Origin: a virus
Lineage: Duplodnaviria > Heunggongvirae > Uroviricota > Caudoviricetes
Virus record (IMG/VR): IMGVR_UViG_2778261514_000007
Span: 1 to 6,445 of that record
Reading direction: 5' to 3' (one strand)
DNA: 6,445 bases
Both the position numbers and the translations under genes were made by a program. The notes under the pieces were generated by a model, which was not told where the DNA came from, searched no databases, and was given only the letters and a program-made list of their open reading frames with translations. Of the stretch, positions 409 through 4,564 are shown in pieces (within the stretch, counting starts at the first letter, position 1; every line of letters starts with the position of its first letter).

Positions 409-1494
409 TTACAGACACTTGACTACTGTTGAAACATCAGATTCTAGTGCTTCAATTTGTGCTCTATTAGCTTGGGTCGCCATACCATAGATAGTGTAAC
501 TCTTATGCTGCAGCCTACTTAAAGGGCATCCCTCATGGTTTATTATTGCTGCAAGAGTATTACCATCTTTGACATTTTGAACTCTCTCGAAAGTAGCCAC
601 ATTTGTGAACAGATGAGGATGTGTATTTAACAGGTCATCCGTGATTCTTTTGATCTCTTCTGCATGTGATTTGAATGCTTTTGCTGCATCACTTTCATTA
701 GTTCTTGAGCGGTTTTGTACGAAAAGGTGTAGTTCAGGTAGTTCGATAAGGTTTTGCTTTGCTTCTTTGTTGAAATCTAAGAACATTTCATCTTGTTCTG
801 ACTTGTCAATAGACACTCCATAAATAAGTTTAACAAGGTTTTTTATTCCGCGAATTGATGCAGCATCGGCAGTGCAAGGGATAATTATTCTATTTGCCGC
901 GACTACTCCCAATTCTGTGTAGCTGGCAAAACTTGGATTACAATCAATAAAAAATGTTTTTGCTCTGTCAGAAATGTTTTTATCGGCTTCAAAAGATGCT
1001 ATTAGATCTACCAGCAAAGATCGGCTTTTCTTCCATGCTTCTTTTACTGGGGATGAGCCAATGTGAGATATTAAGCGTGAACAGATATCAAGATCGACAT
1101 CACCAGGAAGAATATATAAGTTCTCTGGCATTTTTGCATTAACATCATGGGCTCGTACAAAGTAAGAAGATTCATTTCCTAAACGAGACAAAGGAGATTT
1201 GCTAAAACGCTCCTTGATATAACCTGCGATTGTAACATTTCTGTCTCGCAATTTATTTAGATTTTCTTCCCCGGTACCATTGCCACCAAGAATAATTTCT
1301 GAAACGTTTGATTGAGGGCATGAGTCAATAACCACAACATCTTGATCCGGATGAGATATAGCAAACTCAACGGCAAGATTATATGTAAGAAAAGTTTTTC
1401 CTACACCACCTTTGTTGTTCCATACTAAATATTTTGTATTGGTGGAAATCATATCTGCTACCCCATCTGTCGCTTCAGTACGTTCATTAATCAT
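409..1494 (-). CDS. ParA/MinD/Soj-family (deviant Walker A) ATPase, 361 aa, with a ~110-aa C-terminal extension of unknown function; no ParB partner
   Basis: ORF-track protein has NKGGVGKT at residues 27-34 (deviant Walker A with the signature lysine) and a ParA-like Walker B region FFIDCNPSFASYTELGVVAANRIIIPCTADAASIRG. ATG at 1494-1492 is preceded by AGGA with a 7-nt spacer on the minus strand. The gene is visibly AT-rich relative to the right half of the window (not computed). Confidence 0.85.
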   Translation of the reverse strand: MINERTEATDGVADMISTNTKYLVWNNKGGVGKTFLTYNLAVEFAISHPDQDVVVIDSCPQSNVSEIILGGNGTGEENLNKLRDRNVTIAGYIKERFSKSPLSRLGNESSYFVRAHDVNAKMPENLYILPGDVDLDICSRLISHIGSSPVKEAWKKSRSLLVDLIASFEADKNISDRAKTFFIDCNPSFASYTELGVVAANRIIIPCTADAASIRGIKNLVKLIYGVSIDKSEQDEMFLDFNKEAKQNLIELPELHLFVQNRSRTNESDAAKAFKSHAEEIKRITDDLLNTHPHLFTNVATFERVQNVKDGNTLAAIINHEGCPLSRLQHKSYTIYGMATQANRAQIEALESDVSTVVKCL

Positions 1495-1728: not shown

Positions 1729-2469
1729 TTAAAGTCGATTATATTTAATCGACTCATGAATCAGTGCCTTACCCATAACATAAAGCTGATCTTGCGACTT
1801 CTCATCAATGTACCATTTCTCATAGGCGGGGTTATCCGAAAGAACAGCTAGTTTGTTGCCTTGCATTTGTAGACGTTTAACATGGAAAGTCTTACCGTAA
1901 ACGAAAGAGTAAACTCCATCAGTCTGGAAGTGGCGAACGGAAATGTCGACAAACAATCGATCCCCGGAAACAAGAGTTGGGGACATACTATCTCCATTTA
2001 CCGTCATAACTTTTATATCATTCTGAGAACGGTTTCCGAAAAGAGAACGGGCATGTTCAGTTGTGAACTCAATGGCGTAGAGCACATCAACATAGTCTGA
2101 AAGCATATAGGTCCCAGGTCCTGCGCTAACGCTAAGATCCAAAACTTCTATCCTGTATACATCGGGCTTTGTTGGATTGGGGATGCTTGCCATTTCCTTA
2201 CATTCCTCTCTATCTCCAACACCATATTCTAGATATGAAGCTGATACTCCAAGAGCCAACGCAAGTTTACTCATGACAGAGACACGTGGCTTCGCTGCGC
2301 CGATTGTGTATCGACGAGCCATTTCATATGTAACGCCCACAAGACTTTTGAGTTGAGTGACAGAGATTCCTTTGATTGTCATCAATTCGTTTAGTCTCTT
2401 GGCGAAATCTGGATACTTCTGTTCTTCTACCATAGGTAGAAGATTACTCACATCGCACGCGCTAGTCAT
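1729..2469 (-). CDS. cI-like prophage repressor: N-terminal HTH (XRE-type) plus C-terminal S24 LexA-like autopeptidase domain
   Basis: N-terminal HTH-like segment FAKRLNELMTIKGISVTQLKSLVGVTYEMARRY. C-terminal S24 hallmarks: Ser in NGDSMSP, Lys in HVKRL, and a possible Ala-Gly cleavage site in VSAGPG. The ORF-track start at 2490 is a TTG; the first ATG is at 2469-2467 with no Shine-Dalgarno, consistent with a leaderless PRM-type transcript as for lambda cI. Start is therefore 2469 or 2490. Confidence 0.85.
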   Translation of the reverse strand: MTSACDVSNLLPMVEEQKYPDFAKRLNELMTIKGISVTQLKSLVGVTYEMARRYTIGAAKPRVSVMSKLALALGVSASYLEYGVGDREECKEMASIPNPTKPDVYRIEVLDLSVSAGPGTYMLSDYVDVLYAIEFTTEHARSLFGNRSQNDIKVMTVNGDSMSPTLVSGDRLFVDISVRHFQTDGVYSFVYGKTFHVKRLQMQGNKLAVLSDNPAYEKWYIDEKSQDQLYVMGKALIHESIKYNRL

Positions 2470-2539
2470 TTCTATTTTAAGTAGTTGCAATTTGCTATTT
2501 TAAGTAGCATCATCCCTCTGAATTTCAGAGGAGAAAGGT
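2470..2539. promoter_or_regulatory. Divergent promoter/operator region (PRM-like leftward, PR-like rightward) between repressor and cro-like gene
   Basis: Exact 13-bp direct repeat ctattttaagtag at 2472-2484 and 2495-2507, each an imperfect dyad (ctaYt-NNN-agtag). -35-like TTGCAA at 2485-2490, 17-nt spacer, -10-like CATCAT at 2508-2513. On the minus strand a TAAAAT hexamer sits 4 nt upstream of the repressor ATG. A 17-bp palindrome (2515-2531) overlaps the cro Shine-Dalgarno. Confidence 0.55.
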
Positions 2540-2779
2540 ATGTCATCTCAAAACTACACAGAGAAAGCAGTAAAGGCTGCGGGAAAATCTTTATCTGAAG
2601 TAGCCCGTCGCTTTGGTTTTAAGTCCACTCAATCCGTCGCCAATTGGGTAATTAACAATCAAGTCCCGTCAGAACGGGTTTTACAACTTTGTGAGTTGGG
2701 AAACTGGTCCGTGACCCCTCATGAACTGCGTCCTGATATTTACCCCAATCCAAATGATGGATTACCTGAGTGCTATTAA
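2540..2779 (+). CDS. Cro-like small HTH regulator (YdaS/Cro family), 79 aa
   Basis: Strong RBS gaggag (2528-2533) 6 nt upstream of ATG 2540. The motif VPSERVLQLCELGNWSVTPHELRPDIY matches my recollection of the YdaS/Cro-family signature (..VP.ERV...E..TG..RHELRPD..). Divergent from the repressor, in the classic cro position. Confidence 0.8.
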   Translation: MSSQNYTEKAVKAAGKSLSEVARRFGFKSTQSVANWVINNQVPSERVLQLCELGNWSVTPHELRPDIYPNPNDGLPECY

Positions 2780-3416: not shown

Positions 3417-4564
3417 ACAGTTTAACGGCAAATAACCGTTTGTCGCAACAGCTGGTGGTCAGCGTCGCTGAACACCTGTTGTTACGGCATGAATGCAGAT
3501 TACCAAATCACCTGGCTGTAAGTAACCACAGAGAACTTTACCTGACTGTGGGGGGCGAGTTGTGCAGGAACTTAACCGCTGGTTTCGTGACGGAAGAGGG
3601 CTTTATGTCCATGTTATTCGTTGGGAGCCAGAAACACAGCGCGTTATCTATCTTCGCAAAGACTACCCGCATGAGTGCTTTAGTCCTTTGTGGAAATTCA
3701 GGCGTGATTTTGTTGAGTGTGAAGGACCACCAGCATATTGATTCTGCAATTCCGGGACGTTACACTGTTCCGGCACCTTATAAAGCGGGTGCCGGGCGTG
3801 GAAACCCGAAATTCAATATAGAGCACAACCGCGCTCATGCGGTTTTTTCGTGTCATGAGCATCGTTACGCCCAAATTATGGTGGGGCGTGCAGGGCCAAC
3901 TTCGGTTGGGCCGGGTTCTATGTTGACCGGTATTTCCACCCCTGTACGTCTCACCACCTATATGGTCGTGGAAAGCCTTGGTGGTGAGTTCATTGAATTC
4001 AACATAGGGGCTGTCACCATGACTACTCTCCCAACCCAATCTCACCCTGAAATCACGATTATCAATGGTCGCGTTGTCACCACATCTCTTGCAGTAGCTA
4101 ATTACTTTACTAAACGGCATGAGCGGGTTTTAGATAGAATTAGAAACCTCGAATGTTCCGCTGAATTTACTGAACACAATTTTGTGTTAAGTGAATACAC
4201 CGACGCATCAGGCCGCAAACTCCCTTGTTACCAAATCACCCGCGACGGTTTTGCGTTTCTTGCTATGGGTTTCACGGGTAAACGTGCTGCCCGGTTCAAA
4301 GAGGCATACATCAATGCCTTTAACCAGATGGAAAAACTGCTTTCAAAGCCATCCACGCTGAGCGATGCCGCAGATAACGCCAGCGTGCTTTACTCCCACC
4401 TGTCGGTAATCCACAAGGTCTGGCTGCAGCAGCTTTATCCCATGTTGGCAAAAGCCGAATCCCCGCTGGCTGTAAGTCTGTATGACCGCATCAACGACGC
4501 GGCGCTACTGGCCAGTCTCATAAATTTGTCGCTGAACCCTTCAGAGGTAAGGGGGCGCAAATGA
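3413..4564 (+). CDS. Rha-family (pRha domain) phage regulatory protein with an unusual ~200-aa N-terminal region; possibly tandem pRha-like modules
   Basis: Residues ~203-300 (MTTLPTQSHPEITIINGRVVTTSLAVANYFTKRHERVLDRIRNL...ITRDGFAFLAMGF...) match the pRha domain as I recall it. The start at 3413 has an ATGA overlap with the upstream gene and a GGAG 10 nt upstream. The N-terminal part carries a weaker echo of the same motifs (VAEHLLLRHE vs VANYFTKRHE; VTEEGFMSMLFVG vs ITRDGFAFLAMGF). An internal ATG at 4019, preceded by GGGG, could start a canonical ~181-aa Rha. Confidence 0.65.
   Translation: MNSLTANNRLSQQLVVSVAEHLLLRHECRLPNHLAVSNHRELYLTVGGELCRNLTAGFVTEEGFMSMLFVGSQKHSALSIFAKTTRMSALVLCGNSGVILLSVKDHQHIDSAIPGRYTVPAPYKAGAGRGNPKFNIEHNRAHAVFSCHEHRYAQIMVGRAGPTSVGPGSMLTGISTPVRLTTYMVVESLGGEFIEFNIGAVTMTTLPTQSHPEITIINGRVVTTSLAVANYFTKRHERVLDRIRNLECSAEFTEHNFVLSEYTDASGRKLPCYQITRDGFAFLAMGFTGKRAARFKEAYINAFNQMEKLLSKPSTLSDAADNASVLYSHLSVIHKVWLQQLYPMLAKAESPLAVSLYDRINDAALLASLINLSLNPSEVRGRK

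Follow-up and report, generated by a model that had tools for sequence, protein, structure and literature searches.

The nearest described parallels to the element reported here are the fold-back structures of the insertion sequences IS10 and IS50, in which only transcripts from outside fold, and these are translationally silent. For IS10, fold-back inhibition goes back to the 1985 work of Davis, Simons and Kleckner, and the fold-back arm reportedly lies upstream of the pIN start; for IS50, the transposase is said to be protected from read-through transcripts, as credited to Schulz and Reznikoff in 1991. By its promoter geometry, the locus described here would be laid out in the same way, with the distal arm over the translation signals and the proximal arm upstream of the element's own start (a predicted one in our case), and we propose the same logic for a phage cro gene. 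It differs in that the setting is a prophage immunity switch and not a transposon end, that cro is the gene protected, and that the arm fits within the 6-nt discriminator of a promoter. The IS10 reference is cited in PMC13181058 (Davis, Simons & Kleckner, 1985; PMID 2416461).

Other systems share parts of this design. In pyrC and pyrD, a transcription start 6-7 nt after the Pribnow box decides whether a hairpin forms that sequesters the Shine-Dalgarno (SD) sequence (PMC6524683); the original work (Wilson et al., 1992; Sorensen et al., 1993) is taken here as summarised in that article. As predicted for our locus, the 5′ arm of the SD hairpin abuts the transcription start, and the start position relative to the -10 hexamer decides folding. 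The pyrC switch, however, is a 2-nt shift among starts 6-9 nt after the -10 that senses the CTP/GTP ratio, whereas the SD-pairing bases here are nt 1-5. We considered start switching by nucleotide pools, as in pyrC, and rejected it, these bases being outside the range of starts. The 5′ UTR of IS200 tnpA carries a stem-loop that sequesters the SD in cis and blocks 30S binding (PMC4513863). It resembles our element as a cis hairpin on the SD, but it lies in its own mRNA and represses constitutively, and a separate terminator handles impinging transcription. The 5′ stabilising stem-loops of the ompA type compare only if the stem here is at or near the 5′ end of the cro mRNA, a reading that we weigh below; they leave the SD uncovered and need a start upstream of the stem, while here the SD is covered.

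The surroundings follow the OR/PR-cro region of lambda: cI and cro diverge, PR and PRM are interleaved with operators, cro has a leader of about 20 nt, and the cI mRNA is leaderless (here probably so). Unlike in lambda, the operators are 13-bp sequences of the form CTAC-N5-GTAG, and Cro is of the YdaS/DicC type. In the lambda PR leader we know of no anti-SD sequence in the discriminator. In the literature that we searched, no relevant account of a hairpin in the cro leader of lambdoid phages came up. The class of SD-sequestering fold-back structures is well known, then, and an anti-SD sequence inside the discriminator of a prophage lytic promoter is, as far as we found, new; we know of no description of a phage switch in which part of the promoter also serves as the silencing arm of a translational insulator.

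The immunity region

The window, that is, the whole 6,445-nt stretch that was analysed (IMG/VR record IMGVR_UViG_2778261514_000007), is the immunity region of an Escherichia coli prophage that is lambdoid and e14-like. Of 5426 complete genomes, 206 carry this region, and no strain with published maps of transcription starts was evident among them. Its features are these:

409-1494, minus strand: ORF for a ParA/AAA_31-type ATPase of 361 aa, between cI and OL
1729-2469, minus strand: gene for a CI-like repressor (HTH and S24 peptidase), divergent from cro, with a putative leaderless start at ATG 2469
2472-2484, no strand: operator OR2, CTATTTTAAGTAG, 13 bp, overlapping the PRM-like -10
2485-2490, plus strand: PR -35 hexamer TTGCAA, 17 nt before the -10; TTG in all 30 members of group A (see below)
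2495-2507, no strand: operator OR1, CTATTTTAAGTAG, 13 bp, within the PR spacer
2508-2513, plus strand: PR -10 hexamer CATCAT, which is CATTAT or TATTAT in relatives and is mirrored at PL
2515-2519, plus strand: CCTCT, the anti-SD core of the left palindrome arm; part of the PR discriminator, 3′ of the -10 and 5′ of the predicted +1
2520, plus strand: predicted PR start G2520, from sigma-70 geometry; 7th nt after the -10, a purine after a pyrimidine
2529-2533, plus strand: cro SD, AGGAG, 6 nt 5′ of ATG 2540; GGAG in all relatives
2540-2779, plus strand: cro-like gene, 79 aa, YdaS/DicC-type HTH (PF15943), labelled 'transcriptional regulator' in RefSeq
3773-3849, plus strand: isrK, an Rfam match at gathering score (61.6 bits)
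3874-3961, plus strand: C4 antisense RNA, an Rfam match at gathering score (82.4 bits)

Downstream of cro come a YmfL/CII-like gene (PF06892), an Ash/Rha antirepressor module and the replication genes. The isrK and C4 matches lie just 5′ of the Ash/Rha-domain ORF, as in the c4-ant antirepressor immunity module of P1/P7, and this module accounts for the apparently non-coding gap between ymfL and the Rha gene. On the other side of the switch, the ParA-like ORF occupies the position of rexAB in lambda, where relatives have other small genes or none. Farther left, beyond window position 1, about 570 nt separate PL from the annotated start of rdgC (3812-4390 of locus L001). This stretch is relatively G+C-rich, holds no convincing ORF and gave no match in an Rfam search; it could belong to a long PL leader or encode an RNA that is not annotated.

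RefSeq starts cI at 2433. An ATG at 2469, 12 codons upstream, opens an extension that is free of stops in 40 distinct relatives, and in the extension (2434-2469, minus strand) GTCATTTCTATTTT is invariant among these 40. By comparison of these sequences, the cI start is probably ATG 2469 and not the annotated 2433. The ATG stands 5 nt past a PRM-like -10, TAAAAT (2479-2474), a spacing that suggests that cI, like its lambda counterpart, has a leaderless mRNA. At the other end of the gene, a perfect 9-4-9 palindrome, AGTCGATTA-TATT-TAATCGACT (1733-1754), occupies the last cI codons and is followed on the minus strand by UUUAAUUA; it may be the cI terminator, ahead of the ParA-like gene.

Relatives and the geometry of the lytic promoter

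An alignment of 47 Cro homologues served as the profile for a scan of metagenome and viral contigs, which yielded 160 loci; a scan of genome contigs with the single Cro protein as query yielded one locus only. These 160 loci, five annotated loci and one genome-scan locus gave 101 distinct cro-upstream sequences, which fall into three sets. Homologous Cro proteins occur in Escherichia, Salmonella, Klebsiella, Citrobacter, Serratia, Pectobacterium and others. Group A, to which most of what follows refers, has 30 distinct leaders whose Cro proteins are 66-100% identical to that of the window, and shows a common layout: OR2, TTGnnn, 16-17 nt containing OR1, then [C/T]AT[T/C]AT. In group B the -35 and the -10 (TAGTAT) are both 3 nt further left than in group A, and in the third set the operators are unrelated.

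The spacer between the TTG and the -10 is 16-17 nt in 30/30 group A sequences. PL repeats the -35/-10 layout, as TTGATT-N17-CATNAT, in 15 relatives. The conserved TTG spacing, the PL layout and the joint 3-nt shift in group B all support the assignment of CATCAT/CATTAT as the -10 of PR. At sigma-70 promoters, transcription starts about 7 nt past the -10. The first six nt after the PR -10 are pyrimidines and the seventh is G2520, and a pyrimidine followed by a purine at nt 6-7 is found in most relatives.

The operators fit the consensus CTA[C/T]-N5-GTAG. A further candidate, OR3, is CTACCATAGGTAG (2427-2439), which by its sequence fits CTAC-N5-GTAG and is the core of a perfect 9-3-9 palindrome, TCTTCTACC-ATA-GGTAGAAGA (2423-2443); its place is 45 bp from OR2, within the 5′-terminal part of cI. 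At the far left of the window, OL/PL (92-138) is a 47-nt inverted copy of OR/PR (2467-2513), 79% complementary to it, that includes a -35 (TTGATT), an operator and a -10 (CATCAT). A second perfect 8-1-8 palindrome, AACAACAG-T-CTGTTGTT (65-81), follows the PL -10 in the leftward direction after 10 nt and would be part of the PL transcript. We examined it as a sister of the element at cro and rejected it, since the PL regions of relatives do not conserve it and no SD is adjacent. Four other loci (L002, L145, L147 and L150) share GGCAGGACGCCCACG(A/T)AGTAGC about 20 nt downstream of the PL -10, a motif that is near the beginning of the PL transcript and that the window does not have; perhaps it is an RNA element of the nut or put kind.

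A hairpin over the cro Shine-Dalgarno sequence

A sequence reading and an exhaustive palindrome scan both find at 2515-2531 a perfect 8-1-8 palindrome, CCTCTGAA-T-TTCAGAGG, which cannot be extended, C2514 being opposite A2532. It begins one base past the PR -10 hexamer CATCAT, and its right arm (2524-2531) shares three bases with the cro SD AGGAG. The palindrome has no motif in common with the operators. In each of these respects (the form of the palindrome, its place right after a -10-like hexamer, its overlap with the ribosome-binding site and its lack of relation to the operators) the first-pass annotation had described it exactly. The stem is followed by AGAAAGG and no U tract, so that it does not qualify as an intrinsic terminator, and a terminator scan does not list it. 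Rfam 15 has no match at gathering score at the palindrome, and 2400-2620 gave only chance-level matches (E above 4).

Taken bare, the palindrome is not significant by its sequence; its significance lies in conservation and covariation in relatives. At least one perfect palindrome (arms of at least 8, loop of at most 8) occurs in 60% of first-order Markov shuffles of the window; the window itself has 4 distinct ones, against 0.84 expected (P ~0.007), and any one intergenic stretch of 106 nt would be expected to have ~0.014. As RNA, the window sequence is predicted to form a 7-bp stem (2515-2521 with 2525-2531) closed by a 3-nt loop (2522-2524), with dG -10.0 kcal/mol.

A corresponding hairpin is found in about 27 of the 30 group A sequences, with the first paired base at nt 1-3 after the -10 and the SD in the 3′ arm. 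Fold scoring covered 33 segments, three of which (L043-L045) were later reassigned to the group B register; over all 33, the mean dG was -8.0 kcal/mol against -2.4 for shuffles, with a mean z of -3.2. The located SD tetramer had 4/4 bases paired in the minimum free energy structure in 24 of the 33 segments, and 3/4 in a further 7. In group A the arms vary in sequence and stay complementary, with loops of 3-12 nt. The arm pairs include CCTCTGAA/TTCAGAGG, CCTGTGAA/TTCACAGG, CCTATGA/TCATAGG and CCTTGG/CCAAGG, as well as CCTCTAC/GTAGAGG, TCCTGA/TCAGGA, CCTTCTG/CAGGAGG and CTCTTGG/CCAGGAG. Whatever the loop length, the SD is always paired with bases at nt 1-7 after the -10, mostly at nt 1-5; by promoter geometry, the anti-SD sequence is at nt 1-6 in about 27 of the 30.

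Aligned by MAFFT from sequence alone, the leaders have 79.5% of cells paired, and all slid registers do less well; two-sided changes occur in 6 of 8 pairs (24 cells), and 0/500 column shuffles reach the observed covariation. A covariance-model alignment has 85% of cells paired, against at most 60% in slid registers. One covarying position, nt 5, changes from C to G or A together with a matching change before AGG, and is upstream of the canonical start. Variants within E. coli follow the same pattern: A2527G gives a U.G pair and A2521G a G.U pair, and A2521G is also found with T2525C, which makes a compensated G-C pair, in a variant whose C2526T gives another G.U.

These data bear on the possibility that the complementarity arose by chance, or incidentally, a discriminator rich in pyrimidines being set against an SD rich in purines. 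The 60% of shuffled windows that have a single such palindrome would suit that explanation, as would independent constraint on CCTCT and on AGAGG. It is contradicted by the covariation controls (0/500 shuffles), and it accords poorly with covariation outside the SD core, with a pairing register that moves with the SD, with PL discriminators that are not CCTCT-like and with a group B that has no hairpin, and among the explanations considered here we give it the least credence. The PL promoters, of the same design as PR, do without a CCTCT discriminator, from which we infer that the anti-SD sequence is not required for the promoter.

The first-pass annotation had offered a binding site for a second regulator, such as Cro, as one of two functions for the dyad. 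As a DNA operator for Cro, for another phage regulator or for a host factor such as LexA, the dyad is suggestive in the window, where it is perfect and placed so that a bound protein would block PR, and some relatives have CTGT-N9-ACAG, which is loosely LexA-like. A dimeric DNA-binding protein needs conserved half-sites at a fixed spacing. The half-sites here vary among phages in which the recognition region of Cro (QSVANW) is conserved, their spacing differs by up to 11 nt, the asymmetries are of the G.U type, and there is no similarity to the CTAC-N5-GTAG operators; an operator function is highly improbable, and the proposed Cro site fails on the variation of arm sequence and spacing alongside a constant recognition region. 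A LexA box in particular needs N8, and we rejected it for its wrong spacing (N9) and because CTGT...ACAG is missing in most relatives. Covarying arms, variable loops and plus-strand G.U pairs point to an RNA structure and not to a protein-binding dyad.

The G.U pairs also give the strand. There are 23 of them on the plus strand, and plus-strand folds are more stable than minus-strand folds (Wilcoxon p = 0.001). A hairpin acting in leftward RNA, for instance in a PRE-type establishment transcript running antisense across cro toward cI, would be equally stable in the window (-10.0 kcal/mol), and the gene that follows cro is CII-like (YmfL, PF06892). Across relatives, though, folding is poorer on the minus strand (p = 0.001), where the 23 G.U pairs turn into C.A mismatches, and the L148 type falls from -11.6 to -2.0 kcal/mol; there is very little probability to be given to leftward RNA as the place of action.

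The dyad might also act as DNA, through a hairpin of the non-template strand in the open or scrunched complex or through a small cruciform, and so modulate initiation at PR or escape from it. We know of no precedent for a non-template hairpin of 17-30 nt at a promoter. In its favour, the open complex melts precisely the stretch that holds the left arm, DNA hairpins tolerate G.T pairs, and the ops element for RfaH is reported to be a functional non-template-strand hairpin (PMC5995543). However, a cruciform would not be extruded from arms of 8 bp around a 1-nt centre, which are too short; the constant link of the right arm with the SD argues for translation and not transcription; and PL, a promoter of the same type, is without such an element. 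We regard an effect at the DNA level as very unlikely.

Together, the comparisons indicate that the palindrome is a local, unusually perfect form of a plus-strand RNA hairpin that has been selected and that occludes the cro SD. Of the second function offered in the first-pass annotation, an RNA hairpin near the 5′ end of the cro mRNA that sequesters its ribosome-binding site, the hairpin itself thus holds, being selected on the plus strand, whereas its place within the cro mRNA is doubtful, the anti-SD sequence being upstream of the predicted start.

The arrangement is limited to one promoter-register lineage plus one unrelated example. The hairpin is absent from group B (mean z 0.04), which includes two isolated Providencia phages. 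A megablast search of a phage collection gave matches to the YmfL/Rha part only and none to the immunity region, and distant and protein searches found group B relatives only (including the Providencia phages), in which the hairpin is absent; by these searches (megablast, distant and protein) the element is in no characterised phage. The unrelated example is L006, from Entomohabitans teleogrylli. There, 5′ of the cro at 1501, the operators are unrelated and the layout is the same: a -10, TATAGT, is followed by UCCUUG...CAAGGA over the SD, with the anti-SD sequence at nt 3-8 after the -10. It may be an independent instance of the arrangement.

Which RNA folds, and what it would do

With the left arm included, the leader (2514-2542) has a predicted dG of -10.0 kcal/mol; from G2520 on (2520-2542) it has -0.6. 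Folding of the 5′ UTR, which had been suggested as a check, therefore gives two answers: a stable structure in RNA that has the left arm, and RNA essentially unstructured at the SD if transcription starts at G2520. Across group A, RNA that begins 60 nt upstream leaves the SD unpaired with a mean predicted probability of 0.11, and RNA that begins at nt 7 with one of 0.44 (p = 9e-8). With coding sequence included, the sequence of the window shows a modest predicted gain in SD accessibility, from 0.28 to 0.51.

Covariation needs an RNA with both arms, and the geometry of PR would exclude both arms from the PR transcript, which suggests that the hairpin forms in RNA derived from upstream. The first-pass annotation had named a transcription start downstream of the palindrome, together with the absence of protein binding or of an effect on cro, as speaking against a role for it. 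The predicted start nearly is such a start, G2520 being inside the left arm, and the covariation still shows that the element functions in some RNA.

The reading that we favour, at somewhat short of an even chance, is that cro mRNA initiated at PR lacks the left arm and is translated, while transcripts that come in from upstream form the hairpin, which hides the SD. Transcription from PR would begin at G2520, inside the left arm and about 7 nt past the -10, so that PR transcripts would have no anti-SD sequence and a free ribosome-binding site. Plus-strand RNA from upstream would have both arms and would fold (at about -10 kcal/mol), hiding the SD. The hairpin would thus be a translational insulator, with Cro, which flips the lysogenic switch, made only from RNA begun at the repressor-controlled promoter.

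Candidate sources of upstream RNA are read-through antisense to cI, late transcripts around the circular genome, host read-through and spurious promoters within AT-rich upstream sequence. The DNA directly upstream of the cro leader is the cI gene, transcribed in the opposite direction, and a consensus scan found no plus-strand promoter upstream of cro. A rightward PRM-like promoter in the inverted OL copy was considered as a source and rejected, the motif being degenerate there.

The main alternative places the hairpin inside the cro mRNA initiated at PR. If the start is at or just upstream of 2514-2515, the hairpin would be a cis attenuator that occludes the SD and possibly protects the mRNA from RNase E/RppH. 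The same covariation and plus-strand evidence applies to such an attenuator; a hairpin needed at the very 5′ end would likewise have its stem base fixed beside the promoter; both the -10 and the start are predictions; and IS200 tnpA is a precedent for an SD-sequestering hairpin in a gene's own leader (PMC4513863). A start at nt 1-2 after CATTAT is, however, incompatible with that hexamer as the -10, and the TTG-N16/17-CATTAT assignment is backed by PL and by group B. The sole alternative -10, TAGCAT (2505-2510), is separated from the conserved TTG by 14 nt and lacks a -35 at the 16-18 nt distance, and even with it the start would be at nt 4-6, still leaving out SD-pairing bases. Moreover, nt 1-6 are nearly all pyrimidines, which make poor starts, and a purine stands at nt 7. 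On this evidence an attenuator within the PR transcript seems to us rather unlikely, though it has by far the strongest case among the alternatives. If it is true, the element is an ordinary translational attenuator of cro, of lower interest.

An insulator would have a counterpart across the operators. We suggest tentatively, with less than even confidence, that both genes of the switch are licensed by the start of their RNA: cI as a leaderless message from AUG 2469, and cro only from the PR start inside the hairpin.

If the hairpin is an insulator, it would provide a compact design for synthetic circuits, in which six promoter nt double as an anti-SD sequence and translation is tied to the promoter of origin. 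It would also extend a principle of insertion sequences to prophage switches: stray Cro would destabilise lysogeny, and a temperate phage would in this way shield its lysis-lysogeny decision from transcriptional noise.
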